A model generated the notes under the pieces. It had not been told where the DNA came from, ran no database searches, and worked only from the letters and a program-made list of their open reading frames with translations. Source: Alphaproteobacteria bacterium (GTDB lineage Bacteria > Pseudomonadota > Alphaproteobacteria > JAPOUT01 > G958296285). From it: a DNA stretch of 64,000 nucleotides. This document shows, piece by piece, positions 2,903 through 63,800 of this stretch; the first letter of the stretch is position 1, and each line of letters starts with the position of its first letter. The stretch is taken from assembly GCA_965212115.1 (NCBI GenBank), contig CBDBUR010000002.1, positions 1,025,948 to 1,089,947 on the forward strand. Reading direction: 5' to 3'. The position numbers and the translations under genes were made by a program.

Positions 2903-3508
2903 ATGAACCTCAACACGACCTCATCACGAAATTTTGCCGTGCGGAATCTTGAATGTTCTCGCTCAGGGCGGCGAGTTTTCTCCGGCCTGTCTTTCCGCCT
3001 CGAGTCCGCCGAGCTGCTCCATCTGCGCGGCGCAAACGGATCGGGCAAGACAAGCCTCTTGCGCATGATCGCAGGCCTTTTGCCTATTTCATCGGGCGAA
3101 ATCACCCGCTCTGTCGCCTTCCATTATATCGGTCACCGCAATGCACTGAGCACGCCTTTATGCGCGCGTGATATGCTGCGATTCTGGTCCGGACTGATGA
3201 AAGGCGACAAAAACTTCAAAGCTGACGAAGTTCTCAATCATTGGCATTTGCGCGACGTGGCTTCTGTGCCAATCGCCATTCTATCAGCCGGACAAGCGCG
3301 CGCTTTGTCTTTGTGTCGGCTGCGATTGGCGTCGCGCCCGCTCTGGCTGCTCGATGAGCCCGTCGCCGGACTCGATCATATCCGCGTCGATATTTTGCGC
3401 CGACAGATCAAAGATCATCTTGCGCTAGGCGGCATGGTGATTTTAGCCGGTCATGCTCATGAGGCGCTCGACATCAAAGGCAATGTTTTGAATTTAGATG
3501 ACATATGA
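2903..3508 (+). CDS. ccmA: Cytochrome c biogenesis heme-exporter ATPase CcmA
   Basis: 201-aa ABC ATPase with Walker A 'GANGSGKTSLL', an ABC signature region and Walker B 'LWLLDEP'. Overlaps the start of ccmB by 4 nt. First gene of a ccmABCDG run. Confidence 0.85.
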   Translation: MNLNTTSSRNFAVRNLECSRSGRRVFSGLSFRLESAELLHLRGANGSGKTSLLRMIAGLLPISSGEITRSVAFHYIGHRNALSTPLCARDMLRFWSGLMKGDKNFKADEVLNHWHLRDVASVPIAILSAGQARALSLCRLRLASRPLWLLDEPVAGLDHIRVDILRRQIKDHLALGGMVILAGHAHEALDIKGNVLNLDDI

Positions 3509-4161
3509 TGCAATATAACGTCATTTTTCGCCGCGATTTGTGTCTTGTGATCAAGCAGGGATGGGCAGCGCCTTTAGGATTTTTTCTGATCGTCATGCTC
3601 GCTTTTCCTTTAGGCCTGACGCCTTCGCAGGATTTGTCGGGATTAGCTTGCGGGTTGATCTGGGTGGACTTGCTGCTTGCACACTTGCTTATTTTGCCAC
3701 GTCTGTTTGAGGCTGACCTCACCGATGGGGTCATGGATGTTTTGCTCATTGAGACGGAATTGCCGACATTGATGATTATCACAAAGTTTTTTTCTGTGTG
3801 GATTGGCGCTTCTCTGCCTTTGATCGGGCTTGTGCCTTTGGCGGGGATTTTACTGGGTCTTGAGCCATCGGCGTTTGTGCCGCTGATCGGCGCGACTTTG
3901 ATCGGCAGCGTCGCTTTAGTGTTTTTAGGCGGTTTTGCCGCCGCTTTGACCGGAGGCCTGCGCGCCACACAATGGCTGACTCCTTTGATCGTTTTGCCTT
4001 TGGAATTGCCGGTGCTGATTTTTGGCGCTGAGGCGGCTTGTGTGCCGCTCGATGTTTTTTTCACAGCGCCGCCAAGTCTGATATTGATAGGGCTGGTGCT
4101 GATGGTGGTGGCGCTTTCGCCGTTCGCGACGGCGCTGGCGCTGAAATTGCAGGAAAATTAA
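3505..4161 (+). CDS. ccmB: Heme exporter permease CcmB
   Basis: 218-aa polytopic membrane protein immediately downstream of ccmA and coupled to it by an ATGA overlap. Hydrophobic profile typical of CcmB. Confidence 0.85.
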   Translation: MMQYNVIFRRDLCLVIKQGWAAPLGFFLIVMLAFPLGLTPSQDLSGLACGLIWVDLLLAHLLILPRLFEADLTDGVMDVLLIETELPTLMIITKFFSVWIGASLPLIGLVPLAGILLGLEPSAFVPLIGATLIGSVALVFLGGFAAALTGGLRATQWLTPLIVLPLELPVLIFGAEAACVPLDVFFTAPPSLILIGLVLMVVALSPFATALALKLQEN

Positions 4162-4162
4162 A

Positions 4163-4891
4163 ATGAAATCGATGAACGCGATCATCCTTTATGCCAATCC
4201 GGTGCGGTTTATGGCTTTGAGCGCCAAACTCTGGCCGATTTTTGCTGCCGTGACGGCGATGTTGAGCGGGATCGGGCTTTATTTTGTGTTCACCGCGCCG
4301 CCGGATTATCAGCAGGGAATCACGGTGCGAATATTATTCGTCCATGTGCCGTCGGCGTGGATGGCGATGATGATCTATGGCTTTATCGCAGCTTCTTCTT
4401 TTGCGGCATTTGTTTGGCGCGCGCCTCTATCGGATATTGCGGCGCAAAGCGCGGCCTTGCCTGGTCTTGGATTCACTTTCTTGGCGCTGGCGACCGGATC
4501 TTTATGGGGTAGGCCGATCTGGGGACATTTCTGGGCATGGGATGCGCGGCTCGTTTCAGTGTTGGTTTTGTTTTTTCTTTATCTAGGCTATATCGCGCTG
4601 CTGGCTGCGATCGAAGACCGCGCGCGCGCAACAATGGCCGCGCGGTTGTTAGCGATCGTCGGCGTGATTAATCTGCCGATTATAAAATTTTCGGTCGATT
4701 GGTGGAACACTTTGCATCAACCGGCATCTATTTTGCGTTTGGAAGGCCCGGCACTCGCGCCAGTCTTTCTCTGGCCTCTGGCCTTGATGGCGCTTGCGGC
4801 GTTATTTTTGTTTATCACACTTTTAATGGTGCGTATGCGCGCCGAAATCATGCGTCGGCGGATTGAGTCGTTCGTTTTGGCGCGGGAATAA
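4163..4891 (+). CDS. ccmC: Heme exporter protein CcmC
   Basis: 242-aa membrane protein with the CcmC/CcmF/NrfE tryptophan-rich signature 'WGRPIWGHFWAWDARL'. Confidence 0.9.
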   Translation: MKSMNAIILYANPVRFMALSAKLWPIFAAVTAMLSGIGLYFVFTAPPDYQQGITVRILFVHVPSAWMAMMIYGFIAASSFAAFVWRAPLSDIAAQSAALPGLGFTFLALATGSLWGRPIWGHFWAWDARLVSVLVLFFLYLGYIALLAAIEDRARATMAARLLAIVGVINLPIIKFSVDWWNTLHQPASILRLEGPALAPVFLWPLALMALAALFLFITLLMVRMRAEIMRRRIESFVLARE

Positions 4892-11666: not shown

Positions 11667-12767
11667 ATGTGCGCAAAAATTCTGCTGCTGCCGGGAGACG
11701 GAATTGGCCCTGAAGTCGTGGCCGAAGCGCATCGCGTTCTTGTCTGGCTTTGCGAAAATCGCGCTTTTGAAATCGAAATTGACGAAGCTTTGGTCGGCGG
11801 CGCGTCCTACGATCAAGACGGCGTTGCGATCACCGACGCGACGATCAAAAAAGCCGCCAGCGCCGATGCAGTGATTTTAGGCGCGGTCGGCGGTCCGAAA
11901 TGGTCGGATGTTGCTTATGAACATCGTCCGGAGGCGGGGCTGCTGGCTCTGCGCAAGCAGCTTGATCTTTTTGCTAATTTGCGTCCGGCATTATGTTTTC
12001 CCGCACTTGCCGAAGCATCGGCGCTCAAGCGCGAGTTGGTCGAAGGGCTTGATCTTCTGATCGTGCGCGAGCTTACTGGCGGCGTCTATTTTGGCGAGCC
12101 GCGCGGCATCGAAAATATCGGCGACGGCAAAAAACGCGGCGTCAACACCCATGTCTATGATAGCGATGAGATCCGTCGCATCGCCCGCGTCGGATTTGAT
12201 TTTGCGCGCGCGCGATCAAAGCGCATAACATCAGTTGAAAAGCGCAACGTCATGGAAGCTGGACAGCTCTGGTATGAGGAAGTCGTCAAGCTGCACGATG
12301 CGCATTATCCCGATATTGCGCTTGACCATATGCTCGCCGATAATTGCGCAATGCAATTAGTGCGCCAGCCCAAGCAATTTGATGTCATCGTGACCGATAA
12401 TCTGTTTGGCGATATGCTCTCAGACATCGCCGCGCAATTGACCGGATCACTGGGGATGCTGCCGTCGGCCTCACTCGGGGGCGCGCGCGAAAATGGCCGC
12501 CGCGCCGCGCTTTATGAGCCAGTGCACGGCTCTGCGCCCGATATCGCCGGACAAAATAAAGCCAACCCGCTCGCGATGATCCTGTCGGTCGCGCTGGCGC
12601 TGCGCTATTCGTTTGATCGCCCCGATGACGCTGCAGGGATCGAACAGGCCGTTGCGCAAGTTCTAGCGCTTGGCCATCGCACGGCGGATATCGCGTTAGG
12701 CGGTGGGGCGCTCTCGACGCAGGATATGGGCAGCGCTGTGCTTGAGATTCTCTCACAGCAGGCTTAA
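11667..12767 (+). CDS. leuB: 3-isopropylmalate dehydrogenase
   Basis: 366 aa. It has the '[12 protein letters not shown]' N-terminus and the isocitrate/isopropylmalate dehydrogenase signature '[26 protein letters not shown]'. Confidence 0.95.
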
Positions 12768-45114: not shown

Positions 45115-45897
45115 TTATAGCGCAGCGCCAACATGGCCGCCATCAACAATGATGGTTGCGCCGGTCATATAGGCACCGGCGCGTGATGCGAGCAGCAAGA
45201 GCGGGCCGGTGAGTTCATCGAGCGCGCCGATGCGGTTCATCGGGATTCGCTGGATCATTTTAATGCCGCTCTCGCTGTCGAGGAAGTCGCTGCTGATGGC
45301 GGTGCGGAAATAGCCGGGCGCGAGCGCATTAACGCGAATATTATGCCGCGCCAATTCGATTGCGATTGTGCGGGTAAATTGTTTGACCCCGGCCTTAGCA
45401 GCGGCGTAGGAGGCGAGCATGAGGCCGGGACGCTCGGCGAGAATCGACGAAATGTTAATGATCGCACCGCCGCTTTTGGCTCTGATCATTCTGTTGGAGG
45501 CTTCTTTAGAGACCCGCCACACGGCGCTGAGATTAGTTTCGATGACATCGTGCCATTCCTCTTCGCAGAGAAGCTGCGCGAAATTGTTGCGCGCCAGGCC
45601 GGCATTATTGATAATGATCGTCGGCATGGAGAGGGTCTGCTCGGCTTCGTCGAAGGCGCTGCGGATGCTTCGGGCGTTTTTGACGTCGGTCTGGATGGCG
45701 ATGGCTTTTTGGTCGGTTGCGGCGCTGATTTTTTCAGCCTGATCTCTGATCTGGTCTAAGCGGCGAGCAGCAAGCACGACATCAGCGCCCGCCTGCGCGA
45801 GCACATGGGCGAAATGTGCGCCGAGCCCGCTCGATGCACCAGTAATGAAGGCCGTTTGCCCCTTCAGATCAAACAAATCGCTAATCGCATTATTCAT
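45115..45897 (-). CDS. Short-chain dehydrogenase/reductase (SDR)
   Basis: 260 aa with 'TGASSGLGAHFA' cofactor binding, 'NNAG' and a catalytic Tyr...Lys ('YAAAKAG'). Confidence 0.85.
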   Translation of the reverse strand: MNNAISDLFDLKGQTAFITGASSGLGAHFAHVLAQAGADVVLAARRLDQIRDQAEKISAATDQKAIAIQTDVKNARSIRSAFDEAEQTLSMPTIIINNAGLARNNFAQLLCEEEWHDVIETNLSAVWRVSKEASNRMIRAKSGGAIINISSILAERPGLMLASYAAAKAGVKQFTRTIAIELARHNIRVNALAPGYFRTAISSDFLDSESGIKMIQRIPMNRIGALDELTGPLLLLASRAGAYMTGATIIVDGGHVGAAL

Positions 45898-45936
45898 GGA
45901 TACCCCCTATTTTGCGGTTTCATGCTAAAAGAGATT

Positions 45937-47997
45937 ATGGCCAAGATAAACCCTATCTTTTGCATTTTGCCTCTTTTGGTTTTGTTGATATCAGGGGCGC
46001 AAGCGGGGTCGTGGCGTGAGAGCGACAATCATCGGTTTCGGGTTTTTTTGGGCTCCTATGACGAAGAACGGCTTTATGGAGGGTTTGCGTTTGAGTTGAA
46101 GGGCAATTGGAAGACCTATTGGAAAAATGCCGGTGATGCGGGTCTTCCGCTCAAACTGCGTAAAGCGAGCTCAGATGTTATGATTCACTGGCCTTCGCCG
46201 CGGCGGTTTTTTTATCAAGATGGCCTTTATTCCTATGTCTATGACAAGCAGGTGGTGATCCCTTTTTCTTTCCCTCATCCCAATTCCGGTAAAGGTGTGA
46301 AGCTGAGAATAATCGGGGAATATTCGGTCTGTGATGTTTTATGCGTTCCCTATACTTTTGACGAGACGCTTGAGATTCCGGTTGCGGCGCGGCGCGCTGA
46401 CGAGGATCAATCGATTCGACACGCGCTTGGCGAGATGCCAAAGAACGTCGCCCAAGATGATGCGCTTGATGTTGTTCTCGCGGCGGATCGCAACATTATC
46501 AATGTGTCATTTCGCGCGCAGCAGCTTGGCGCGGTGCGCGATGTGATGATCGATGGCGGTGATCTCTCTTTGCGCGCGCCAAAAATCATCGCTGATGGGG
46601 ATAAAGTTTCGGCTTTGTTTGATTATCAGGCTTTTTCAAAGAAACAAACAAGATCGCCGCTAGAAAACATCACTCAAGAGATCAAAACGATTCTTGTGCA
46701 AACGGATCGCGGGACGTTTCAGATTTTTGGCGCCGCGCCGACGACGATAACGCCTGCCGCGCCTGAAATGATGTTGTGGTCGTTTATTTTGATTTTGGCA
46801 TCGGCGTTTTTGGGCGGTTTGATTCTCAATATCATGCCGTGCGTTTTGCCGGTGATATCTTTGAAGCTGGCGCAGATGACGCTGCCTGCGGCGTCATTGA
46901 GTCTGCGCGCGCAATTAGGGTGGACGGTTTTTGGCATTTTGCTGTCGTTTGTTTTGCTCGCGGCGATTGTTTATGTGCTGCAGCAGGCGGGCGAGATTGT
47001 CGGCTGGGGTTTTCATTTTCAGCAGCCGGTTTTTGTTTTGTTGATGATGAGCGTCTTGTTGTTTTTTGCATTTGCACAACTGGGATTTTTGCGCTTGGGA
47101 TTTGCGTCGAGTGTACAGGGCGGAATCAACCAATGGCTCGATCGATTTCAGCCGGATCGCCCTGCGTTTCATATTTTTTATGGCGGGGTGATCGCTTTGC
47201 TGGCGACTCCGTGCACGGCGCCTTTTTTAGGCAGCGCGGTGGGGTTTGCGCTGACGCAATCTTTTGCGGTGATTTTGCTGGTTTTTGTGTCGATTGGATT
47301 GGGTCTCGCGGTGCCGCTTTTGATTTTGTTGGCATGGCCAGGATGGGCAAATGACGGCAGCGGGCACGGCTTACGGGCATCGCGCTGGACGGTTTATGTA
47401 AGGAATTTTGCGGCGATTTTGCTCTATGGCTCGGCGCTGTGGCTGCTGTGGGTTTCGTCGGGACAATTAGGTCTTGGCTGGGCGCTCGGTTTTTTTGTGA
47501 CGCTTCACGCGGCGTTGCTGATCTTGGCGCTCGCCGACAGGCGGGCCGCGCGTTATGCGGCGGCGGGGATAATTTTTGCGGTGGTTGTTTCACCGCTGGC
47601 TTTGCCGTCGAGTCCGATAGTAGCGCGTGTGGTCGAAGATGACGGATTGGTCTGGCATATTTTCAGCGAAGCGGAGTTCAAGACGCAAAGACAAAAAGGC
47701 AAGATTGTATTTATTGATATTTCAGCCGATTGGTGTTTGAGCTGCCAATATAACAAAGCAAATGTCTTGCTCGATGACGAAGTGCGGACAGCTTTGGGCA
47801 GCGCGGATGTCTATTTGATGTCGGGTGATTTAACGAAGGTCAATGATAAGATCACGAGTTTCATTCGCAAAGAGGGGCGCGGCGGGATCCCGTTCAACGG
47901 ATTTTATGGCCGCGCGCGCAAAGAAATTCTTAGCGAGATTTTAAGCAAGAAAGCTTTGCTGAAGAGTCTGGAAGCGATCAGGGCGAATAATTATTAA
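45937..47997 (+). CDS. DsbD/ScsB-type transmembrane thiol:disulfide reductase
   Basis: About 687 aa. Signal peptide, an N-terminal periplasmic domain ('KGNWKTYWKNAGDAGL'), a polytopic core with the conserved Cys/Pro segment ('MPCVLPVISLKL') and a C-terminal thioredoxin domain with 'DWCLSCQ' (CxxC). The start is set at the SD-preceded ATG; the track ORF starts at 45805. Confidence 0.75.
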   Translation: MAKINPIFCILPLLVLLISGAQAGSWRESDNHRFRVFLGSYDEERLYGGFAFELKGNWKTYWKNAGDAGLPLKLRKASSDVMIHWPSPRRFFYQDGLYSYVYDKQVVIPFSFPHPNSGKGVKLRIIGEYSVCDVLCVPYTFDETLEIPVAARRADEDQSIRHALGEMPKNVAQDDALDVVLAADRNIINVSFRAQQLGAVRDVMIDGGDLSLRAPKIIADGDKVSALFDYQAFSKKQTRSPLENITQEIKTILVQTDRGTFQIFGAAPTTITPAAPEMMLWSFILILASAFLGGLILNIMPCVLPVISLKLAQMTLPAASLSLRAQLGWTVFGILLSFVLLAAIVYVLQQAGEIVGWGFHFQQPVFVLLMMSVLLFFAFAQLGFLRLGFASSVQGGINQWLDRFQPDRPAFHIFYGGVIALLATPCTAPFLGSAVGFALTQSFAVILLVFVSIGLGLAVPLLILLAWPGWANDGSGHGLRASRWTVYVRNFAAILLYGSALWLLWVSSGQLGLGWALGFFVTLHAALLILALADRRAARYAAAGIIFAVVVSPLALPSSPIVARVVEDDGLVWHIFSEAEFKTQRQKGKIVFIDISADWCLSCQYNKANVLLDDEVRTALGSADVYLMSGDLTKVNDKITSFIRKEGRGGIPFNGFYGRARKEILSEILSKKALLKSLEAIRANNY

Positions 47998-48730
47998 GCG
48001 ACCAGTCATAATCGAGGTGGCTGTTGATGGATGTCTGCTTTGGCAGGTCGGGTTTATATTTTTGGACGAACCGGATGATGTCTTTTTGCGTTCCGAAATC
48101 TTGGGCAAACCACTTAAAAATTTGCGACAGGTTGATCCCGTCGGGAGATGCGTTGACGCCTTTGCGCTTATTGTTGAGGAAAGCGCGGGTTTGGTCGTCG
48201 AGCTGCTGGTTGAGTTTTTTAGCGTTGTAGGGTTCGCGCCTGAGGTCGGGGCAAGAGAGTGAAGCGCACACGATGGCCATATGGATTCGCGGATCGCCCA
48301 TAGGTCTGAGGATTTTATGCTCAATATGGTCGAGGGTGATGGACTGGCCGTTAATGTTCCAGCGATGGATCACCCAAGGCGATCGCCACCATGAGCCGAG
48401 GTTTTTAATTGTTTCGCGCTCGGCCTTTTTGATGATGAGGTCAATGGTGAGGAGGTTGTAAGCATTGATCCAGAAGGCCATTTTCTGACGACCTTTAAGG
48501 CGCGCGGTATCGGCCTTGAGGATTTTATTCATAGCTTTTTTGTGGAGAGGGTTTTTTGCCCAGAGGTCATAGTTGATGAGGTTTGCCGGGATGTTATTTT
48601 TTTTGCCCTTCACGACGTATTGAGCGAGGAGTTTTTGATAAGGGTCGAGGCTGTCGGTTTCTGCGGTGACGTGGCTTGAGAGACCGCCCGCTAGCAAAAC
48701 GAGAAAGAACAAAAGAGGGTTAAAGTTCAT
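47978..48730 (-). CDS. Exported DUF547-family protein
   Basis: 250 aa with a signal peptide ('MNFNPLLFFLVLLAGGLSSHVTA'). The central 'FWINAYNLLTIDLII...CASLSCP' block is characteristic of DUF547. Convergent, and slightly overlapping, with the dsbD-like gene. Confidence 0.55.
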   Translation of the reverse strand: MNFNPLLFFLVLLAGGLSSHVTAETDSLDPYQKLLAQYVVKGKKNNIPANLINYDLWAKNPLHKKAMNKILKADTARLKGRQKMAFWINAYNLLTIDLIIKKAERETIKNLGSWWRSPWVIHRWNINGQSITLDHIEHKILRPMGDPRIHMAIVCASLSCPDLRREPYNAKKLNQQLDDQTRAFLNNKRKGVNASPDGINLSQIFKWFAQDFGTQKDIIRFVQKYKPDLPKQTSINSHLDYDWSLNNYSP

Positions 48731-48898
48731 GGTAACGCCTTATATTAAAATATATTACAGCCTATATGGCAGATGGTCTTGCTGTTTGATAAAAAGCCTC
48801 CAATTTTTTGAGCTTGATAGAATTTTCTTGACTTATAAATGAATAGAAGGCAACAATAAAAAAGGATAGTAGATGTTTAACGGGTGTTTTATTAACAG

Positions 48899-51800
48899 GT
48901 GAATAAAAAGGGAGTTTCCTGCGTTTTGCGAAATTATAGAGCGAGACTGTCGGCGCGCTTTTTCGCCGTTTTTGTAGGTATTTCTGCATTGACTGTAGGG
49001 TCAATAGCGGCAGCTGGCCCTCAGGGGGGCCGGATCACGCAAGGGCAAGGCCGCATCGAGCAGATCGGTAGCCACACCGACATTCGCCAAAACAGCGACT
49101 TTCTTGCGACGCAATGGCAGAATTTTGACATTGGCGCCAATGAGAGCGCGCAGGCTCATCAGCCGAGTGCGTCCTCGCGGCTGCTGATCCGCGTCGATGG
49201 CGCAGGAGCGACGAATATCGCCGGAAGTTATACCTCCAACGGCATCACGATCATAGAGAATCAAAACGGCGTCCAGTTTAGTCGCGGTGCTGTCGTTAAT
49301 GTCGGCGGCCTGCTCGCGACAAGCGCGCGGATTTCGGGTGTTGCAGGGTCGAAATGGACGCTTGATGGAATAGGCGGCGCGGTTGTCAATCACGGGACGA
49401 TCACGGCAGGAGCAGGCGGCGCGGTTCTCGCGGCGGTTCGGGTAGAAAATACCGGCGAGATCACTTCAAACGGCGGCGATGTTGCGCTCGGGGCAGGCGA
49501 GGCCTTTACAGTAGATTTTGCTGGAGGTCTTGTCGGATTTGAGGTCAAAAAAGGCGCGGCAGGTGCAGCACTTGTCAATGAAGGACGAGTTGAAGCGCAA
49601 GGCGGGGTTGTAAAACTCACGGCGCAGGAAGCGCAAGCAGTTCGGGCGAATGTCGTGTCGGTTGGCGGCGTTGTCAAGGCGACGAAGCTGGAGCGTCGCG
49701 GCGGTGTTGTGTATCTTTCGGGCGGCGGCGAAGGGATCAATGAAGTGTCGGGCGCGGTTGAGGCCGATGAAAAGGTTGAAGCGACCGGCAAATATGTTGT
49801 GGTGAAAAGCGGGGCGCAAGTCAAAGCGCCGGAGATTCTCGTTGGTGGTGATTATCAAGGCAAAGGCCCGGTACCGACGGCTTTGCGCACCTTTGTTGAG
49901 CCCGACGCGCTGCTCGATGCCGGAGATAAGGGCCGAGTGATTGTGTGGGCGGATGAGACGACATGGTTTCATGGTCGGCTCAGCGCGCCTGGAGGTTTTG
50001 CGGAGGTTTCGGGCAAAGTGAATCTCGCGGCGGTCAATCTGGCGGGGATCGATGTCGGCACACTGTTGCTTGATCCTAGCACGATCACCATTACAAATGC
50101 TGGAGGAGGAGTAGTCTCTGTAGGTGGACCTGATAATATTTTCAATACTGGTGAGGGCAACAATGTTTTGGTTGCATCAGATACTATTTCAACAGTGCCG
50201 TTAATGATTAGTAATAGCTCATTCAATGATCTCGCTGAGGGCACGACAGTTATTCTGGCAGCGGTTCAAAGTATTCTAGTCACTGCGCCCATCTCGACGA
50301 CCAACAATATCAATCTAACTTTGATAGCTGAAAGCTCTCCGAGCACAAACAACATCGAGCTTAGAGCCAACATCAATATTGGCAGCGGCACTTTGACCCT
50401 CAGTTCAGGAGTCATCAATGCTTTTGGCGCTCGCACACTGACAGCGGGTGTCATTAATATAGAATTTACGCGCGCGAGTTCTGTGGACATAGCTAGTGGA
50501 TTCAATAATACTTTTGCCTCTCTCACCTTTGCGAACACTGTCGTGCCGACATATACCTTTCAGCCTCTTAGGTGTGTTTCGGGCACCGCTTGCAACTTGA
50601 CTGTGTCGGTCGGGCAAACGATTGCCGCCACTTTAGATGCAGGAACTGCGGCCATTACGATTGCCGCAGGGTCTTTAGCTCTTACGTCGGCGAGCTTTGT
50701 GGACGCTGATGGCGGCACGGACGGCCCGATCAGCATCAGTGGCGCAGGCGTTTCGATTACCGCGGGCTCCATTGATACCGAAGGGCGCAATTTGACCATC
50801 AACGCCAGCACGGGCTCTTTGACCTTGACCCTCGCTAGCATCGGCGTCGGGGAGGGCGATTTGAGCATGACGGCGAATGATATCTCGGCGACTACGCTCG
50901 CGCTGACAGCCGCCTCCATCGCGATCACGCTGACAGACGACAGCGATATAAATGTTGGTCTGGGCGGTGTCACCTATGACGGAGATACAAGCCCGACAAT
51001 CACTCTTCCCAGAACCATCACCTTGTCGAGGAATAACTCGATCATCATCAATGCGCCGGGTGCCAACGTGGAATTCGATTCTAGCGGCGACATCACAATC
51101 GGGAGAAATAATTTTACGGGCATTGACAAGGTTGAGATTACCGCTACTTCTCTCCTGACCCAAGGCCGGAATTTGACGATTGCAACCACCCGCGGCGTAG
51201 TCAACTCGATTGTCTTGAACGCTGACATTAACACCACCGCCTCTAGCGGCACGGCAAGGGGCGATATGCTATTTTCAACTAGAAATCTTAGCATAGCTGG
51301 CAGTGCGGCAGGCGAAACGCGCAACTTAGTGGCTGATGACATCACGTTTAATCTCGGACTGGGTATAAACAACGGAACGTTTGACGCCTCAACATCAACA
51401 TTTACGGAGTCATCTACAGAATTCAACGGGATAGGGCCAGAAGATGATGTGCTGGTAGATAATACCAACTTCAATGTTGATGCCAGCGGCACATTGCTCT
51501 CGATTACCACGGCGTTCGGGTTGAATTTTAATGCCGGCGATTTCACTGCGGAGGCTGGCAAGATTCAGCTTGCTCGCCGTACAAGGACAGGCGACAGCGT
51601 TCTTTTGCAACTGTCAGCCACAAACATCACGCTCAGGTCGAACGCGGAGGATGACGCCAACAAGCTCATTGAGGTCGGCTTTGCTGATGACAACAATGTA
51701 TTTACTCGCAATAATAGTGAAGACGATAATGTTGATTTACAGATTGTCGCTTTTAGCGGCGGCGTTATAACACTGGGTGCCAATATCAATGCTGGCACAG

Positions 51801-54800
51801 GCGATATAGAATTAGGGGAGCTCGATGGGACAGGTATTGAAATTATCTCTGATGATGGGCTGGCGCTGACACTCACAGCTGGCAATATAACTATCCATAA
51901 CTCATTTGAAGCGGGCTTGGGCACAGTCGGCGGCGCGGGCACAGCTCTCACCATCAATGCGACAGACATTTTGACTCTTCGGGAAGATATCTCAACAGGC
52001 CTTTCGAGGATTGACCTCAATATAGGGGGCATCAGCGCCTTCGGGTCGCGCACTATCGATGTGCACCGCGCAGACGGCACCATCAATCTTGTCTTTACGA
52101 GCCAGGCGACCCTCAGCGCCGCAGATCCCAATACGAATATCAGCAACATCAGGTTTCGGCGGGGGGCGGCGGCAGATTCACTGACATCTATCAATGTGAC
52201 GCCGACCTATCCTGATCCGTTTAGGGCCTGCACGGCACAAGCAGGCGGCGCTGCCGCATGCGCGTTGAGAAGCCTGGTCGGCGCGGGGCTGCAGGCTGTC
52301 CGGACTTTAAGCGCGACAGTCAGCATCCAGATCAATGTTGACGGCGATTTGACCTTTGCTGCTGGCACAGGCGCAATCACGATCACCGCGCCGACGGTTC
52401 AAATTACTGCCGCCAACATCGACACCTCAAACCGCGATTTGACCATCACTGCCGACACGGGCTCTTTGACCTTGAACGCTGATGTCAATACTGGCACGGG
52501 CGCGCTTGCGCTGACAAGCGCGCTGATCCAAATCGCAGGCACGACAGGCACAGAGCGCGTTTTGATGAGCACGGCAGGCGACATCACGATCACCTCCGCC
52601 GCCAATGTCCTCAGCGGCACATTTGACGGCACTGATTTTACGCAGGCGGATGTTCCTGTCAGCATCACCGCCACCACCAGCGGCAATTTGAACTTGAACG
52701 CGGACATCAATCTCGGCAAGGGCAGCACGCTCACTTTGGAGGGCATGCAGATCGTGCCGATGAAGTCTCTGAAATTAACGTCGGGAGACATGGAGCTGAC
52801 CGGCGTGGTCATGAGCGCAAATGATGTGAGTTTCACGATTGATGCCGGAAGCGACGAAGAAGGCCTTTTGACTCTCAATAATGACATCTCTCTTGCCGCA
52901 GGCGGGCTGAGTGTGAGGGCAGGAACAATTGATGTGACAACCGCCATAACTGTGACAGTGGCTTCAAAGGACAGAGTGTCATTCACCTTCACCAATGAGG
53001 ACGTCAGGACTTTTTCGGATTTGCCCACTTATCCGGGTAATGTCACTTTTGTTGCAACAAATGGAGACATGATTGCCGCCGGGTTGATTACCATGTTTGA
53101 CAATGAGCCACTAACAGAGTGCTCAAGCACACCAGCGACGTGCACACTCATGAGTTCAGGCGATGACGAAGATTTTGAGGCGGCGGCGGCTCTAACGGCG
53201 TCGGCCAGCCTGACGATCATGGTTCCCGGCGGCATATTGACCTTTGCGGCAGGAGAAATCGTGCTTGACGCGCCGACGATTACAATCACTGCGACGAGCA
53301 TTGATTTGAATGGCCGCGCGCTGAAGGTCATCGTCTCTGGCGGCACTTTAACGCTCACCGCGAACATTGTCGATGCGGGCGCGATCAATGTGGGCATAAC
53401 TGACGGCGGCGGCAATGCGGCGATCGCTTTCATGGGTGCCAATCGCTCAATCACAGGCATGAGCGACATAGCTGTCAGCATTTCGGCGAGTTCGATCACA
53501 ACGAACGGCAATAACAATCTCACTATTCAAACTTCGGGAAGCGGCGATTTTGATTTAACCATCTCCGCCAATATCAATGCTGGCACCGGGGCGCTGAGGC
53601 TGATCTCAACCGGCGGCGAGATCGTCAATGGCGGCACCGCCCCGATGCTGACTGCGGCAGGCACAACGCTCGAGCAAAAAGCTTTATTTGGCGCGACGGC
53701 GGCCTTTGTGTTTGAAGCTGCCACCACAGGGCTGACGCTCAAGACCGGCTCGATTTCAGCCGGTGCAGGCGCAAATCAGGATGTTTTAGATTGGATGCTT
53801 GGCTTTAGCAGAGGCCTAACCCTTGAGGCGACCGGCGGCAGCATAACGATTGCAACCGCGATCACGTTCGGGGAAGAGACAAATGTGCAGCCGCGTGATG
53901 TTGGTGATAGCAACCTCAGGTTTGTTGTCAGCGCCGATGACAGCAGCTTGATCCTCAATGCAGACATTCGGACTGGAGGCACTCTCACTTTGGAGGGGCC
54001 GACTGGCACGTCTACTATAGGGGAGGAAGGCGGCATCATTCTTGGCTCTAGTCTCACCTTGTTAAGGGGAGACAAAAATGTCTCGCTGACGGTGGTCGGG
54101 GACGGCAATATCGCCGTCGCTTCGGGTAATGTCGACCTTCTCATCAATGCGACAATTTTTAGCTCTAGCTCGGTAGAGATTTCAGTTGAAGATGGCAATT
54201 TTGATGTCGGCACGGGGGGTTCTTTAGAGCTGAGATCCACTAGCGACATTTCTATCACGAGAACCGGCGCTGACGCTGGTTCTCTTGTTCCTTTTGTTGC
54301 GGCGTCGTTCACGTTCCGAAAATTTTCTCCTTTTGACAACAATCCTTTAGTCGCATTTCCTGCAACCTTCACCTCGCTGACTATCGCTACTAGTCAAAAC
54401 GCCGATCAAACAGTCCATAACTGGATGATTAACACAAATGCCAATTTAACGATTAGAGGCAACGGCAATACCATTGTGGATGCGGCCATCATATCTACGG
54501 GAGCCAGCGCGCGCTCCATCGGCAGCGGCAGCCTCGATTTTCAAGGTAGCAACATCATTCTCAACGCAGACATCACCACTACCGGAGCGATCACCTTGAA
54601 TAGCGCGACAATCGAATTCGATGCAGCTCGCACGCTCACGGGCGGCGCGGTTTCTCTCGGCGGCGCTATCGATGAATCGGTTGGTAATTTTGCCCTCACC
54701 GTCAACGCAAGCGCCGCTTTGACGATCAATAACAATATCAATACCGGCTCCGGCGACCTCAACTTGACCGGCACGACCATCAGTTTCGACGAGGCGCGCA

Positions 54801-57800
54801 CACTCACGGGCGGCGCGGTTACTCTCTCCGGCGTTATCAATGAATCAGTCGCCAATCGCAGCCTCACCATTACCGCAGGCGGCCTGCTGACACTCAATAG
54901 CACCATCAATCTGGGCAACGGCGCTTTGACCGCCACCGCGGCAACAATCTCCGCACCCAACGCCGCCACCACCGTCAGAGCCAATGCCGCCACCTTCACA
55001 TTCACAGAAGCTGCTGCAACTGCTTTCAATACAAGCAACCTCAGCTTTAACGGCGTCACGCCGACATACACCTTGCCCAGAACTCTCAACGCAATAGAAG
55101 AGATCAACTTGCCGGGCGGCGTCATCACCTTCGCAGGCTCATCAGGGCCTATTGCGCTCAGCAACACAACATCAAGCCTCGTCATCGCCGCGGCTTCCAT
55201 CAATACTCAAGGGGATGATGTGGCAATCAGCGTCAGCGGCGCATCTAACAACTTGACCTTGATCGCCAACATCGACGCGCGCACCACCCCTGATTCAGGC
55301 CTCGGCGGCGGCAATATCACATTGGCAAGCCCCAATGCTAGAGTTCAATTCGGCGGCGCAGCAAGCACAACACGCAATTTGTGGGGTGAGAATATCTCGA
55401 TCACTTCTTCATCCTCTCTTCAAGCCAAAGTGTATGACGGCACGACGCCGGGAAGCGATGATATTAATCTCACCATGATGGCTGGCGATAGCGATAGTGG
55501 CATATTGCTTTTGAACATCGGTGGCCTAGGGATAAACGGCGGCGATGTTTCTTTGAAGGGCTACACTATCCAATTTGCGACAGCGACCAGCGCAGATGAT
55601 ACGAGTATCGCTTTAAGAGGCCAGAACATCACGATTGATTCCGATAATGCGGCAGATGATGCGATTCAAGTTGGTGTTATCAGGGGCAGCGTCTTTGCCA
55701 AAAATGATAGCGCGTCGGCAAATGTTGATTTGAACATAGCTGCAGTAGATTCCGGAAAGATCGTATTGGGCGCGAGCATAGATGCTGGTGATGGGGATGT
55801 AGTTTTCCCCACTGATGCTGCAGTGGGAAGCATGGCAGGCCCCCTTGAGCTGACAACATCGTCAGTGAAGCTAACAGGCAGCGCGATAGGGCTCTCCAAT
55901 GTCCAGACGACCGTCGCAGACACAGTTTTGACTTTAGATGGCGGCACTGTATCGTTCAGCGGCGGCCAAATAAATCTTGTTGCAGGCGGCGCAACCAACA
56001 GCGCTTTGATTGTGAGCGCAGAGATGATTTCGTTGCCCGGTTCCCCCACAATAACGGCAAACCGCGCCGAAATCACATTTACAAGCGGCTCAACCGCGTC
56101 TTTTGATTTCAGCCGCGCCACATTTATAACAGCCACGCCGTCATATATTTTGCCAGCAACTTTAACGCAGACGACCGGTAGTATCACGATCGACTTGCCT
56201 GGCGGTGAGGTGGCTTTCTCAGGCACGGGAGACATCGCGATCTCAGCGCCGACTGTTTCGGTCACCGCCAGTGTCTTGGACGCCGTCGCGCGCAATTTGT
56301 CAATCACCTCTTCCGCCGCCGTTTTGACTTTGGGGGCCGATCTTATCACCAGCGGCAATCTCACTTTAGCAGGCGACACGATCGCTTTCATGGGCGGCGC
56401 GCGCACTATTTCCGGCAATGATATTGCGCTTACAGGCGCGGCCTCAGCGACTGACGATCTCACCATCACCGCGACCGGCCTCTTGACTCTCAATGATAAT
56501 ATCACGCTGAGCACCGGCAATTTGAGCGTTAGCACAGGGACAATCTCCGTTCCGAGCGCCATCACGGTGACAGCCGCCTTCGCCGCGAATATCACATTGT
56601 TTGAGTTCACCGGCGAGGTCTTCTCGCCAAGCAATGTGCCGGATTTTGACAACATCAACTTTGTCGATACAAGCTCAAACCCGCTGACTATAACGCCGAC
56701 CTTTACTCAAACGCTGTTTACAGACTGCACAGACACGAGTCAGGCAGCCACCTGCTTGATTAGAAGCGATCAAGATGGCGCGGACTTTGAAGCAGGCCCG
56801 AGTTTGACAGCAACAGCCAGCCTCACGATCAGCGCGCCCGGGGGCACTTTGACTTTCTCAGGCACGGGCGACATCGCGATCACTGCGCCGAGCCTTTCGA
56901 TCACCGCCGCGACCATCGACACTGAAGGGCGCAAGCTGACAATCAGCGGCGGCGGCACCGCGCTGACTCTAGCTGTCGGCAGCATTGACGCGATCATGGA
57001 AGCTGCTGACGGAAACCCGGAAGTTGCCGGTGATATCATTTTCCCGAGCGTTGATGCCGCGCTGATGGCGAGTCTGACATTAAGCGGCAACAACATCACT
57101 TTGCCTGGCTTCAACGAGGCATTCTCTGATAGAGACGACATTACTATTATTGCAAGAGAAACTGTGACCTTGCAGAGGGACATGGCTTTTGGCGGGGGTG
57201 TGACGCCTGGATTTACATTCAGAGATATCGCTAATGCAACAGTCAATACGTTGAGAATATCTGGAAACGGGATCAGATTTGGGTTAACAAGCGACAGCGA
57301 AATTTTGAGCAGTGCTGATTTAGCGACCGTGCTCGCCGACGCTCGAATCCAAGTGGTGGATCGTGAAGGAAATCAGGTTTTGAATATCGATGGCTCCTCG
57401 GGTATTGTACTTTTTAGTGGTAATTTTGGCTCGCCGCTGACAGAGTGCGCAATTGCTGCGTGTGTGCTCAGAACCGGCGGCAGCGGCGATCTCGAAGGTG
57501 TCAACCCGACTTTAGGCGCAGATGACAGCATCACAATTGATGCCCCAGGCGGCGTTTTGACCTTCGCTGATTTTAGCGGTGGGACGACCGAGATCACGAT
57601 CACATCGCCGATCGTTATGATTACCGCGTCTTCCATTGACACCGCAGGCCGCCCCTTATCGATCACCGCCGCCAGCGGCACGATCACTTTGAACACCAAC
57701 ATTGCCGCTGATGCAGGCAACCTCACTTTGACCGCTGACAATATCATTTTGGGCGGCGGCTCGCGCAGCCTTTCGGGCAATGTCGTGACGATTGGGATCA

Positions 57801-60800
57801 CCTCCGCGACAGGCGAGATCACGCTTGCGGGCACGACCAACAACCTCACCATTGAGGCGCGCGGCAACTTGATGCTCGATACGCCAGCGCTTACGGTTGG
57901 AGGCAGACTTTTCTTAACAGCAGGTCGGGGTGGCGATAGTTCAGGCGTCATTTCCTTTGCAAATAGCCTAAACGCCGGCGCCAAACCGTCTATAACAGCT
58001 ACCGCCACCACAAGCCGCGCAACGCCAGCCATCACGCTGGAGCAGGATGAAGAGTATTTTGCCGCAGATGATGCGGGTGATGCGACGAATAGAGGTCCGG
58101 CGATATTTAACACAACACCTGAAGGTATTTTTGCCGGCCCCACGGTTCCCGCGGACACCGACCGGTTATGGATTAATATCGATACGAGCACCTTTAGCCG
58201 GACATTCGGCTCCGGTGTGGGTTATGCGATTTTGAACGCCGACCTCACGGGAGCATCGGGAACAGGAGAGATCACCGCTCGAGTGAGGCTCACATTTGAC
58301 GCTGGCACGGGGGTTCTTTCTTTTGCCGCCGACGTCACGGACACGGCGATCAGGCTTGCCGCGCCGATAATCTCGATCACAGCGGGGAGCTTTGATCTCG
58401 GCAGCAAAACTTTGATCATCACGACCGAAGGCGGCGATCTTGAGCTCACTGGCGACAGCACAAACGGCTTTTCATTCATGAGCACTGCCACCGCGCCTGC
58501 CACTGGCCATGTGCTTGTCATCGATACCGGCGCTCTCATTGTCACCGGCACACCGGCCACGCCGTTGTTTGATGTGCGCAGCCTGTCTGTCACGCAAACC
58601 GCCGCCTTTGCCGACGCGTCGCCTTTTAGATTCACCAATGTCACGGGGTTGACCCTCATGACAGCGGCAGATCAAACGATCGCCAGCTGGATGATCGCAA
58701 GCGGTCGGGATTTGTCGGTTGCCTCGACTAGCGGCGATGTCATCGTGGCTGCGGAGATCACGAGCGCGGCCATTGGCGCGGGCGACCTCACTTTGATTGC
58801 CCCCGAAAGCTCGTCTCAGGTTCAGATCAGCGCGTCTATTACAACCGGCGGCGATCTCATTGTGCGCGGCGGCGGCGGGGTCTTGTTTGATGACGATGAC
58901 AGCTTGGCATCCACCGCGCTGGTCTTGACCTTAACCGGCGCGTCGCTCATTTTTGGCGGCGACATCACAGCCGATGATGGCGTTGATATTGCTTTGATGG
59001 CGACAGGCGCAGGCAGCGCAGGCAATATCACCTTTGAGAGCGATGTTTCTTCGATCATGGTCAGCGGTGATGGCGTGGGCGGCACATTCACGGTGGACGC
59101 GAATGCAATTATCACCACCTTCAACGCCACGACGCTAGTTTCAGCAACTATTGATTTAACGCAGGCCGCGCCGTTTGTTACCAGGCTATTCATTTTTTCA
59201 ACCGCAATCGTCAATCAACTGACTTTGGCAACCACCACCACCGCCATCCAGCAGGTTAGAGCTTGGATGCACGATACTGCAGGCAATTGGGGCTTCGCCC
59301 TCACGGTTAGTGCAGGCGCGATCCGCGTGGGCGACCTCAACACCGGCACCAACGATCTTGTTTTGTCCGCCAACAGAATCAGAATTGAAGTCCTTGGAAG
59401 CTTAAGCAACCCGACCGAGCTATCCGGCAATAATGTTGTGCTCAGCGCGCCAGGCGGCATTGAAGCTGGGTCTTTAAGTCTCTCCGCCACCCCGGACGAC
59501 ATCCGCATCAGTTCGAGCGCCACCGTGTCCGGCACCAGCTTGCAAATCTCTGGAGATATTAATCTGGGCACCAACGCGAGTTCAACGCTTACTTTGTCGG
59601 GGATGTCGTTTGGCGGCGACGCCTCGAGTGCGCTCACCACCTCTGGGAGCGTCACTTTCAACCTGCGCAGCACCACAAGCGCGTTTGACGCCACCGCCCC
59701 CTATAATGTTGATGCCGTGGCTACCGCTTTGAACCTCATAGTCAATAATGACGCCGCAACGCCTCAGCCGCTCCAAAGCTGGATGACTGATTTTGCAACC
59801 GCCAACAAAACTCTGTCTCTGACATCGGCCTCTGGCACGATTGACATTGACGCAGATATTTCCATCAGCGGCAGCCTCACGATCAACGCGCACACGCTTG
59901 ATACATCTGACCGCGACCTGTCGATCAGCGCGGCTAATATCGATATAGAGATCACGACGGGCGAAGTCGTTTTGGGAGCTAACGATCTCACTGTTGCGGC
60001 CAGCGGCACTTTGCGGTTCGTCGTTACAGGCGGCTTGAGCGCCGTTGATGTCAGCGACGCCGTCACGGCCAACACGATCAGCTTGACCGCAGGCTCAGGC
60101 GCCATCGACGGCAGCGGCACATTGGAAGTCCAAACAATCGCCCTGATCCAAGAGAATACGTTTGTCGCCACCGCGCCGTTCACCTTTGATGCAGATGTAG
60201 CCGCGCTGGCTCTCACAGTCACGCGGTCATCGTCGGCGACGCAGCCGCTCCAGACTTGGATGGAGACTTCTGATCGCAGTCTCAGCCTCACCTTCACCAA
60301 CGGCATCATTGAGTTCAGGCGCGTCCTTGACTTTGGCACGGCAGGCGACCTCGCTTTGTCGGCGACGCAAATTCGCATTGGGAGTGTTCCCGCCACGCCA
60401 ATCACAGTGGTCGCCAATAATATCAGTCTCACTGCTACTAGAAATGATTCTGGCATTGAAGCCTTTGCGTCAAGTGGGAATTTTCTCAACGCTCGTTTCA
60501 ATATGACCATAACAGCGCAGAGGAATTTGATGCTCGTCGGCGATTTTACTGTCGCAAGAGGCACTAACAATGTCTTTACGCTGGAGGCAGGCGCAGGCGC
60601 AGGTGTTACTGATGGTGCCATCACCACGACAGGTTCTTCTGAGGTCGACACAACAAACTTGAGACTCGTCCAAGATGCGGCCTTTGCCGATAATTTATTC
60701 ACAATTACGGTTAATAATGGAGAGTACCGCGAGCCCTTATCCAGCACGCTTGAGCTGGACACCAAAGCAGCGCAGGTTATCCATGGCTGGATGCTTTTCC

Positions 60801-63800
60801 CCGGCATTAATCTGGATTTGACAAGCACTGCGGAAATTATCATCAGGCGCAACATCGATCTTGTCCGAAATCTAGCCGATGGCATTGGTGGGACAGATAA
60901 TCGGCGCAGCAATCTCGCTTTGAGCGGCACCGAGATTCAAATTGAACGCGATGCGAGTGCCGCGCGCTTCATAGAGGCCAACAATATCAGCCTTACGGCC
61001 AGCGCTGCGGCGGGCATCAGAATTGGGACTTTCTCAGGCGATACTTTCACGCCAGCGGTCGCAGCGGATGCTTTTGCTCTGGCTATCCGAGCTGACGGCA
61101 ATTTGACGCTGGCGACCCCCAGCCTCAATGTTGGGGGAGGCGCTCTGACGCTCGTGGCTGGCAACGATGTCGATCTTCTCAGCACCGTCAGCCCCAATGT
61201 TGACGCCGACATTGATTTTGGCACCCTGCCTGACATCACGGCGTCGTCGGTTGCGCTGCGCAAGGGCGGAGCCGTCTTTGGTTCGAGCCCGCCTGCGACG
61301 TTCCAAGATGCTGACGGCACGGCTCTGTCTGAGGGCATGATAACGGCTAGATATACCGGAGATGCCGCCGCGCAAACAGATGAAAACTGGTTCACCATCG
61401 CATTTATTTCGAATCCCTTTGTCATGACGCCGGGCGGCACTGACGATCTTGCGGTTTCCGGTGTCATTCAGCGCAGCGCCGCGATCACCATAGACATCGG
61501 CACAGGAACGCTCACTTTCAACGGCAGCGGCGGCATCATTTTGCAGGGGACGGCGATAGCGATCACAGCGGGCAGCATCGATCTTGAAGGCCGCGCCTTG
61601 ACGATCACCGCCACGGGCACATTGATGATCACCGCGAACATAGCCAATGCGCAAATGATTGAAGTTGTCGGCGCCACCACTTTGTCTTTCCTGGGCGCGA
61701 CGCGCACAATCACCGGCATGACCGGCGATATTGATGTTGTTCTCAATGTGAGCGCGATCACCCTTCCTGATGACGGCACTCTGACTGTTTCGTCGCAGGG
61801 CGGTTTGGAGATTGGCGGCGACATCACGATTGGCGGCGCCGGGGCGCTGACTTTGACAGCCGACTCAAATGACAATGCCACAGATGGAGCCATTACCAAT
61901 GGCGGCGGCGCGGGCACGCTTTCTGCGGCGAGCGTGACCCTCACGCATGATGTTGGCTTTGGCACTGGCTTGTTTGCTCTGCCCGCCGCGGTGACTTCGC
62001 TGGCTCTCACGGCCAATGGCAGCACCACGCAGTTCGTCCAAACGTGGATGTTGAATGACAGCGCCACTAGCTCTGCCGCCAACAATAGAGGCTTCACCTT
62101 CACGGCGACTAGCGCACAGATTTCGGTCGGGCTTGATATTGCCGCAGGCACCGCCGCTCTCGTTTTGAATGGCACCGATCTGGCTTTTGGCACTGATCGC
62201 TCTTTGTCTGGCAGCAACATTACGCTTAGCGGAGCAATGACCGCGACCAACTCACTCACCGTCGCCGCGAGCGGCAACTTAATGATTGGCGGCAATATAA
62301 CTCTTGCAGCCAACAGCGATGGCGATGCCACCACGCTGACCCTCAATGCGGGTGTTGGCGGCACAGGAACAGTCTCCGAAACGGTGTCGGGAAGCCCAAC
62401 CCTGACCGCAGGGACGGTCACTATCGATCATGATGGCGCTTTCCCCTTTGATCTGTTCGCTACTGCCTCTGCTGTCGGCATGTGGGATCTTGCATCATCA
62501 GGCAGCAACAGTTTCGCGATCTACAACTGGATGTTTGGGGTGGGAGAATCCTTGAAATTAAACATTCCAAACGGCCCGCTCACCATTGGCGTCTCTCGTA
62601 TCACGAACGTTGACGTTGGCTCCGCCGGGACCATTGATCTGAATGCTAGTGCTATTACAATCAATGATAACAGCCCAAGCACAACAGCAACAATCACATT
62701 ACGCGGTGGAACTATAACGTTGAGGAGCGGCGTCGGCTTATCCAACATTGCCTCAGGAAGCGAGAGCCTCGCCGTCGTCGCGCAAAACGTTTTGACGCTC
62801 GCTGCCTCCTTCATTGACTTGAGATCCGGCACCCTCTCGCTGACGGGGAGCACAATAGTCAACGACAGCGGCTCCGCTTTGGCGTTGACTGCGGCAATTG
62901 TCAATTTGACGCAAACCAGCACGACGGCCACCGCGGTGTTTGCCTCAGATATATTCACGCTGGCTGACGCCGTGAATGAGTTAAATATCACGCTTAGTGC
63001 GGCGTCCACGCAGTCCGAGACGGCGACGCAGATTCTCCATCCGTGGATGCTCCAGCAAGGCGGTTCGGATGATGCCGGCAGAGACGTAACACTCACTGCG
63101 ACCGACGCTGTCATTCAAGTGGCGCGCACTTTCACCATCAGCGATCTCAATTTGAGCGGCGCTTCAATCACGACCGATGCTACCGCGCGCACCGTGACTG
63201 CGGGAACGATCACGCTCGACGGGCCGGTTGAGCCGGGCAGCGCACTCACGCTCGCGGCGACAGGCACATCGAACGGCGCTCTGACACTAGGAAGCCGCAC
63301 GACAGCCATCACGAGCTCGAATGACCTGACGCTGTCAACCAATGGCACGATCTCTTTTGCCGCCAGCAGTCTGGAGATCGTCGGTGATAACATCTCGCTC
63401 AATGGAGAGATCCCCGTGACCACTTCCGGCGCGCTTGCTGCGGCGCGCGTCATCACGGGAACGGCCTCTAACCCCGCGCTCACCATCACAGCCCTGCATG
63501 ATGTTAGGATTAACATTCACATCAATATCGGCGGCGGCGCTTTGGAGATCACCGCTGGCAATCAGGCAGGCGATGGCACGGGCAGCACAAGTGAAACTGG
63601 TCTCATTGAGTTCCGGAACGGAGATACCGTCACGACTGTTACAAACACGCCTCTGCCGCCAGCCATCAATATCACGATGGGCAGCGTTGTGTTGGTGCAG
63701 GATGGCGCACTTTTCGTCAATGATCGTCCTGCGCTGTTCTTTGATTCTAATTTTGATCCTGCGAACGCGATAGAAAGCACCGGCAATCCTGATCAAATCA

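Follow-up and report, generated by a model that had tools for sequence, protein, structure and literature searches.

The 64,000-nucleotide stretch of alphaproteobacterial DNA analysed here (assembly GCA_965212115.1, contig CBDBUR010000002.1, positions 1,025,948 to 1,089,947; hereafter the window) ends inside a giant gene, and the distal part of the encoded protein raises the question of why a tryptophan–methionine (W-M) pair should recur in it, module after module. A first reading of the sequence (the original prediction) had proposed that this part consists of units of about 160–195 residues, each with an invariant Q-x-W-M motif, and that at least two sub-families of repeat probably form distinct segments within one polypeptide. 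The results described below indicate that the W-M segment is probably a conserved joint which opens each 160–190-residue super-repeat in the β-solenoid stalk of an exoprotein of the TpsA class.

The Giant Gene Encodes a TpsA-Class Exoprotein

Frame +2 was free of stop codons from position 48896 up to the end of the window (5,035 codons), and it is the only stretch of the window in which more than 1,000 codons are not interrupted by a stop. The GTG at 48899, which follows an AT-rich spacer, is the likely start codon. A hydrophobic, signal-peptide-like N-terminus (...FFAVFVGISALTVGSIAAAGPQGG) precedes a two-partner secretion (TPS) domain, which was recognised by both PF05860 (E = 2e-17, 64.4 bits, cut-off 33.5) and TIGR01901 (45.5 bits, cut-off 29.1). 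Judged from its sequence, the giant protein is a two-partner-secretion (type Vb) exoprotein of the TpsA class. Beyond the TPS domain no Pfam or NCBIfam match was obtained in about 5,000 residues. The protein is rich in Thr, Ala, Gly, Ser, Leu and Ile and contains 20 Trp residues (0.4%); its self-comparison showed repeats throughout, of low complexity. No enrichment of N-x-S/T sequons was detected in it (75 versus 69 ± 7).

FHA-type TPS domains bear an NPNG(I) motif. Residues 121–125 of the window protein (49256–49270) read ENQNG, in the context ..ITIIENQNGVQFS.., and the replacement of the proline by Gln (or Arg) was common to all inspected members of the family described below.

The W-M Segments Form One Homologous Module

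Ten of the 20 tryptophans precede a methionine, whereas 5,000 shuffled versions of the sequence contained 0.20 WM dipeptides on average and never more than 3. All ten pairs fall in one homologous element of about 48 residues, which is followed by regular coils and has the consensus LTA..VSLtQ..AF....PFtF......L.LtT.....Q.[VIL][HQY].WM...gR.LsLTS. The alignment of 90-residue windows centred on the pair gave the pattern ..L.L.Q..AF....(P)F.F....V..L.L.T......Q.[VIL]..WM....R.LsLT..G.I.I...I..G..dL.L.A..I. The glutamine at −2 from Trp, on which the supposedly invariant Q-x-W-M was based, is present in 3 of the 10 window copies; the conserved Gln is that at −5 (9 of 10 copies, 96% family-wide), and the motif is better written Q-x-[VIL]-[HQY]-x-W-M.

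The homology of the segments was assessed in two ways. Profile hidden Markov models (HMMs) built with one copy left out in turn gave all 10 omitted copies scores (10.3–48.9 bits) above that of the best non-WM segment; with the 47 upstream residues only, i.e., with the generic following coil excluded, 9 of 10 copies were recognised. In Smith–Waterman alignments the median score was 54 between WM segments and 35 between WM segments and random windows, 200 of which were drawn from the same protein (Mann–Whitney p = 2e-17); with the comparison restricted to the upstream half, the medians were 40 and 23, respectively (p = 6e-22). Since both approaches set the W-M modules apart from the rest of the protein, these are considered homologous, and the refuting outcome named in the original prediction, an alignment no better than that with random segments, did not occur.

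The WM modules of the protein are about 160–190 residues long. In the distal run successive WM pairs are separated by 192, 172, 159, 177, (419), 161 and 172 residues, in agreement with the unit length that had been proposed, and the nine positions listed in the original prediction were correct to within about 10 nucleotides; an additional copy at 53792 had been overlooked. The gap of 419 residues is accounted for by a degenerate W copy fused to an element of a second kind, termed type A, and further degenerate W copies were found at W3092 and, probably, at W4983 (Table 1). The motif [L/F]xLTxxxGxIxxxxxI that had been noted downstream of the pair is indeed present, but it is a generic coil motif found along the whole protein and is not specific to the module.

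When each module was scanned against Pfam, noise alone was returned, and the repeat is thus uncatalogued; a PDB sequence search with the modules likewise gave nothing but noise. By sequence criteria, the WM module is a repeat family absent from Pfam, NCBIfam and the PDB sequences, within a well-known kind of protein.

Conservation and Divergence in Related Proteins

With the module profile, 1.84 billion representatives were scanned exhaustively by HMMER, and 150 proteins of up to 7,821 residues were recovered at E ≤ 0.001; 116 of these passed E ≤ 1e-10, and 82 passed E ≤ 1e-30. The repeat is common to about a hundred giant proteins from uncultured Alphaproteobacteria. A word-indexed search with the same profile gave 0 matches, a limit of the index, as the HMMER scan did find the family. 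In the members with intact N-termini the TPS domain was 71–84% identical to that of the window protein, and a search with this domain returned a tight clade at 67–94% identity, followed by a sharp fall to ≤46% for ordinary proteobacterial TpsA proteins. When the profile of the TPS alignment was run against 185,579 GTDB species genomes, the family was found in one only, OZ243043.1, a 1.6-Mb chromosome recorded as 'MAG: Alphaproteobacteria bacterium'. Further members lie on ENA contigs of 0.7–1.9 Mb, one of which carries two giants (7,703 and 7,821 residues). A scan of genome contigs with the last 363 residues of the window protein found no relative.

The related proteins contained 1,288 module matches. 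Among the 450 of full length, the W-M pair was kept in 431, with Trp in 100%, Met and Gln(−5) in 96% each, Phe(−32) and Leu(+36) in 95% each, Gln(−36) in 88% and Phe(−26) in 77%; identity at the remaining positions was only 20–35% family-wide. The spacing of module starts peaked at 140–160 residues, with further peaks at about 100, 220 and 300, and the W-M element therefore recurs with a variable number of ordinary coils between copies.

The window modules shared 28–39% identity with their siblings versus 35–43% with modules of other proteins, and no tandem DNA repeats were found in the region. Since the modules are nearer to those of other proteins and no tandem repeat exists at the DNA level, the array must be regarded as old and as having arisen neither by recent duplication nor by concerted evolution. 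In a protein so repetitive and of such low complexity, the W-M recurrence might be suspected of being a meaningless by-product of composition or of recent duplication of DNA; the excess of WM dipeptides (10 versus 0.2), the two observations just given and the retention of the motif in 431 of 450 modules refute this, and its probability is negligible.

Predicted Structure of the Modules

Two AlphaFold models were obtained. The first comprised residues 3584–3919, two adjoining modules, aligned with 32 non-overlapping pairs of paralogous and homologous modules; for the second, one module was aligned with 50 further modules. The two-module model reached a mean predicted local distance difference test score (pLDDT) of 89.3 and a predicted template-modelling score (pTM) of 0.89, with pLDDT values of 92–97 at the junction. 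The corresponding values for the single module were 89.7 and 0.85, and its most confident part (pLDDT 97) was that near the W-M pair. Both models were all-β, with strands of 4–6 residues, tight turns and coils of about 17–24 residues. The W-M element appeared in them as a strand (TIALIQ), an irregular 17-residue loop with the conserved Phe residues, a second strand (ALALTV), the Gln and a helical turn. The conserved Gln is placed in a short strand, and the W-M pair on the helical turn (3 residues long, or 9 where the module has an insertion), just ahead of the first long strand, R.LSLTS. In the two-module model the TIALIQ strand, before the W-M element, continues the previous module.

Because of the confidence at the junction and around the W-M pair, the stalk is predicted to be one continuous rod and not beads on a string. 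β-Helices are commonly capped at the N-terminus by a short helix, and the W-M helix stands ahead of the first regular strand of its module, as would be expected if the modules were independently folding domains, each with its own cap helix, and the stalk a flexible string of beads. Against such an arrangement stand the pTM of 0.89, the junction pLDDT of 92–97 and the TIALIQ strand that runs on from the previous module, and no linker-like low-complexity segment was seen between modules; we consider it very unlikely.

A Structural Joint in the Stalk

In the preferred reading, that of a structural joint, each module would consist of an irregular stretch, some 48 residues long (strand, aperiodic loop, strand, Gln and W-M turn), and about six ordinary coils of 17–24 residues. 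We infer that Phe(−32), Phe(−26), a Leu, Val(−3), Trp, Met, Leu(+8), the two Gln and the Arg would lock the irregular stretch onto the neighbouring coils, and that the stalk would be kept as one rigid rod though assembled from duplicable units. Strings of modules would set the length of the fibre, and the surfaces of the modules would diverge fast. The giant protein would most likely be a long fibre or adhesin anchored at the cell surface; no toxin domain was present in its full-length relatives. A packing or folding constraint fits the data because the mostly hydrophobic set of conserved residues is nearly absolute in modules that are otherwise 20–35% identical, and also because the stalk evolves much faster than the TPS domain and the neighbouring genes.

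The same residues could be seen as periodic ligand-binding sites, in which the aromatic side chains provide platforms for glycans or for a host or prey molecule, the whole protein being a multivalent lectin-like adhesin. One Trp is kept per module in a protein where this residue is scarce, polar residues beside it are conserved (the two Gln, His/Gln/Tyr at −2 and Arg at +6), and blood-group glycans are the supposed ligands of the C-terminal repeats of EtpA (PMC10284417). The conserved set is, however, mostly hydrophobic (F, F, L, L, V, W, M, L) and invariant over 450 diverged modules, a pattern that marks a folding constraint and not a ligand-contacting surface on an antigen that evolves fast, and the surroundings of the pair are the most confidently modelled ones (pLDDT 97). 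A binding function of the W-M elements is judged quite improbable.

The element stands at the N-terminal edge of the module and its conservation greatly exceeds that of the subsequent coils, as would be expected of a role mainly in export. With its many aromatic residues (F....PF.F ... W-M), it might act as a periodic folding nucleus ratcheting the chain out through the TpsB pore, or as a periodic site at which periplasmic holdases bind and keep the chain of more than 5,000 residues unfolded; either function could coexist with a structural one in the folded protein. Folding of TpsA proteins is vectorial and takes place at the cell surface, and formation of the β-helix has been proposed to drive export (PMC5422565, PMC10284417). 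No chaperone or TpsB gene was seen nearby, and sequence data do not separate this proposal from that of the structural joint; export as the reason for the conservation is considered unlikely. Binding sites, export elements and independently capped domains are thus all ranked below the structural joint.

Several points weigh against the joint itself. Foldseek searches of the PDB with both models gave nothing significant (best E = 0.7 and 2.1; template-modelling scores ≤0.29), although the weak neighbours were all β-helices (pectinases, tailspikes, an antifreeze solenoid, IgA protease and the TpsA proteins HpmA and HxuA). The β-helix class is predicted from the type of these weak matches, the strand pattern and the TPS context only, and a structural role of the Trp and Met is suggested by the pattern of conservation and the confidence of the models, with their burial presumed. 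The cognate TpsB, an Omp85-type protein with POTRA domains and a β-barrel, is usually encoded beside tpsA. The ORFs (open reading frames) scanned over the 48 kb that precede the giant gene included no TpsB transporter gene, and none was found on either side of the complete homologue on an ENA contig (locus L002). Finally, the C-terminus of the giant protein is located beyond the window, and the end of the fibre is unseen here.

Type-A Elements and Order Along the Protein

A second punctuating element, type A, has the pattern V.FTFT..F..PTY..C-x(5-10)-C...PGG.LTFAG.G.I.I.AP.I.ITA.SID..GR.LTI and occurs in nine copies; its Cys loop is frequent, not universal. The mature giant protein contains 10 Cys in total, all of them in five type-A pairs. 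In the relatives, 98 near-full copies were distributed over 66 proteins, and 74 of the 98 had the Cys pair. The profile–profile comparison of the WM and type-A module families gave a probability of 95% (E = 4e-8), with confident columns restricted to the generic coils that both share; no confident mutual alignment was obtained between their N-terminal elements.

The order along the giant protein is as follows: TPS domain; three type A; two WM; four type A; a degenerate W with type A; five WM; a degenerate W with type A; three WM; and a degenerate W with the start of a type A. The presence of at least two repeat sub-families in one polypeptide was therefore rightly recognised in the original prediction. 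The change of repeat grammar that it placed at about 58.6 kb is real in that type A dominates the proximal part and WM modules the distal one, but there is no clean break, since the two types interleave: two WM modules lie at 53.6–54.9 kb, proximal to 58.6 kb, and type-A elements at 58.0–58.5 and 61.2–61.7 kb, with another one apparently starting at the window end. Of the two hybrid elements, that at 57989..58498 directly precedes the run of five WM modules, and that at 61181..61678 was repeatedly the top non-WM match in the leave-one-out searches. The notion of distinct structural or functional segments found no support, the two-module model being one continuous rod (pTM 0.89).

Table 1. Location of the giant gene, its secretion domain and its repeat elements. 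Key residue: for W elements, the Trp (residue/first nucleotide); for type A, the anchor residue.
Feature	Residues	Nucleotides	Strand	Key residue	Remarks
Giant tpsA-like gene		48899..64000	+		At least 5,035 codons; runs past window end
TPS secretion domain	40–279	49013..49732	+		PF05860, TIGR01901
Type A	468–662	50297..50881	+	621	Cys pair 560/566
Type A	1048–1210	52037..52525	+	1170	Cys pair 1112/1122
Type A	1346–1505	52931..53410	+	1464	Cys pair 1409/1416
WM module 1	1588–1797	53657..54286	+	1633/53792	W-M at 53792–53797; copy missed at first
WM module 2	1798–1993	54287..54874	+	1843/54422
Type A	1982–2136	54839..55303	+	2097	Without Cys
Type A	2337–2495	55904..56380	+	2456	Without Cys
Type A	2551–2707	56546..57016	+	2669	Cys pair 2611/2620
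Type A	2777–2949	57224..57742	+	2909	Cys pair 2851/2856
Hybrid element	3032–3201	57989..58498	+	3092/58169; 3161	Degenerate W (ITLEQDEEYF ... PADTDRLWI) plus type A
WM module 3	3220–3411	58553..59128	+	3265/58688
WM module 4	3412–3583	59129..59644	+	3457/59264
WM module 5	3584–3742	59645..60121	+	3629/59780	Modelled
WM module 6	3743–3919	60122..60652	+	3788/60257	Modelled
WM module 7	3920–4119	60653..61252	+	3965/60788
Hybrid element	4096–4261	61181..61678	+	4165/61388; 4223	Degenerate W (AAAQTDENWF), then type A (ITAGSIDLEGRALTI)
WM module 8	4339–4499	61910..62392	+	4384/62045
WM module 9	4500–4671	62393..62908	+	4545/62528	Most divergent copy
WM module 10	4672–4860	62909..63475	+	4717/63044
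Probable degenerate W plus start of type A		63707..64000	+	4983/63842	QLQVDWA, then RIRLVLNAGTG; weak, from alignment by eye; cut by window end

C-Termini of the Family and Comparison with Known Systems

The full-length members carry W-M modules nearly to their end, followed by a short tail of the type ..F.F...C-x(3-7)-C..TP. In 59 of the 150 related proteins a Cys pair is located inside the last 30 residues, most of them with two Cys 3–7 residues apart. Whole-protein Pfam scans of three members gave the TPS domain and sub-threshold Fil_haemagg matches only, and no toxin domain. In HMW1 and HxuA a C-terminal disulfide loop locks the protein in or below the TpsB transporter (PMC5422565). By analogy with this loop as described, the Cys-loop tail probably retains the W-M family at the surface. 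The idea that the type-A Cys loops are relics of such tails, the gene having arisen by end-to-end fusion of whole units, was unsupported: an HMM of 29 tails matched the giant protein at generic coils only, with at most 4.1 bits and never at the Cys loops (shuffled sequences reached 1.0 bit).

The closest described analogue would be EtpA of enterotoxigenic E. coli, both proteins being, as far as predicted, TPS-secreted β-helical fibres with high-order punctuated repeats. EtpA has four C-terminal super-repeats of 228 residues, each with nine helical turns and a signature motif and ending in a constriction, and a short α-helix is wedged into its solenoid at a kink (PMC10284417). The super-repeat of the window protein has about eight coils as compared with these nine turns. 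Past the TPS domain the two proteins show no sequence relation (Pfam and PDB sequence searches were empty). The four repeats of EtpA are near-identical, whereas the window protein, at least three times longer, has at least 10 old and diverged modules (20–35% identity), with W-M and interleaved type A.

The coils of the window protein (L.LtA.G.LtLn..I..G.G.LtL) are of a length class (17–24 residues) and pattern like those of the FHA/FhaB repeats (PF05594, PF13332; 19-residue R1/R2). Neither Pfam family reached its gathering score when the two halves of the protein and each of the 10 modules were scanned, and Fil_haemagg scored 17.5–18.1 bits in the W-M homologues, under the cut-off of 21.5. To our knowledge, repeats of the FHA type have neither a superperiod of 160–190 residues nor a W-M element. 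As in HMW1 and HxuA, the members of the W-M family have a Cys-pair tail, as far as a comparison by description goes, and lack a toxin domain; in contrast to these systems, neither a TpsB nor an HMW1C-like glycosyltransferase was observed beside the gene. The difference from CdiA lies in the lack of FHA-1/FHA-2 Pfam repeats in the window protein and of pretoxin/VENN or toxin domains in the full-length W-M homologues. PATR (PF12951) is a recurring element of secreted β-helices that is thought to aid export or folding, and the W-M element would likewise be a conserved recurring unit embedded in a secreted β-helix. PATR, however, is a unit of 32 residues in type Va/Vc passengers; the W-M element has about 48 residues, recurs every 140–200 residues and gave no Pfam match.

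Genomic Neighbourhood and Homologous Loci

The 48 kb upstream of the giant gene carry housekeeping genes (aconitase, sucAB-lpd, priA, ATP synthase and fatty-acid oxidation). Directly before it come two further genes. One encodes a divergent DsbD-like thiol:disulfide protein (45805–47997, plus strand), with DsbD_N, DsbD_TM and thioredoxin domains and a score far under the cut-off of the NCBIfam DsbD model; the other encodes a DUF547 protein (47978–48730, minus strand). This pair is syntenic in the OZ243043.1 locus (L001) and does not adjoin the homologue in L002. The DsbD-like gene may be linked to the Cys loops of the giant protein, although nothing supports such a link.

The L001 locus is syntenic with the window, with flanking proteins 60–93% identical and a TPS domain 72% identical. 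The first 660 residues of the two giant proteins share 55% identity, whereas the rest, i.e., the stalk, shares 27–37% and is not colinear; this steep gradient suggests diversifying selection or shuffling of modules. In L001 the giant gene is split by a frame change near 12,640 (12600–12660) into a frame of 912 codons and one of 2,757 codons that runs to the end of the locus, which reflects either a pseudogene or an assembly error. An ORF of 939 amino acids at 3134–5953 of L001, between the MBL-fold and SDR genes and absent from the window, was examined as a candidate TpsB and rejected, as it encodes a type I restriction-modification fusion.

In L002 (1–9727 and 10001–17740) the homologue is shorter, about 2,590 amino acids in three ORFs on a contig of 3x coverage. 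Its neighbours are genes for a serine recombinase, a DUF2924 protein, a SIR2_2 protein, a UvrD helicase and a DNA methylase. Since these surroundings resemble a mobile or defence island, some members of the family may move horizontally.

Many long antisense ORFs were noted inside the giant gene (49466–63829, minus strand; e.g., 59764–60930, 388 amino acids, and 55666–56658, 330 amino acids); in all likelihood they only reflect the biased composition and the repetitiveness of the giant gene and are not genes themselves. No Rfam family was found at the gathering score on either strand of the whole window.

Significance of the W-M Repeat Family

The W-M repeat family reveals neither a new secretion principle nor a new kind of system. 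It would let annotators recognise and delimit giant 'hypothetical' proteins in metagenome-assembled genomes, and it flags a fast-evolving surface fibre in little-known Alphaproteobacteria with small genomes. More than 450 diverged copies of what would be one solenoid joint constitute a natural library on the keeping of register and on folding during export.

It is conceivable, albeit doubtful, that the joint has no counterpart among solved β-helices and imposes a regular kink or super-helical path on the stalk, or offers a docking site, and that the proteins carrying it form a separate TpsA subfamily with Cys loops. With the same reserve, this subfamily, defined by the joint, type A and the Cys tail, may be confined to uncultured Alphaproteobacteria with genomes of 1.6–1.9 Mb. 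If that were true, the more than 45 kb that one such organism devotes to fibres (two genes of 7,703 and 7,821 codons that share a contig) would suggest that these proteins play a central part in attachment to a host or to particles.

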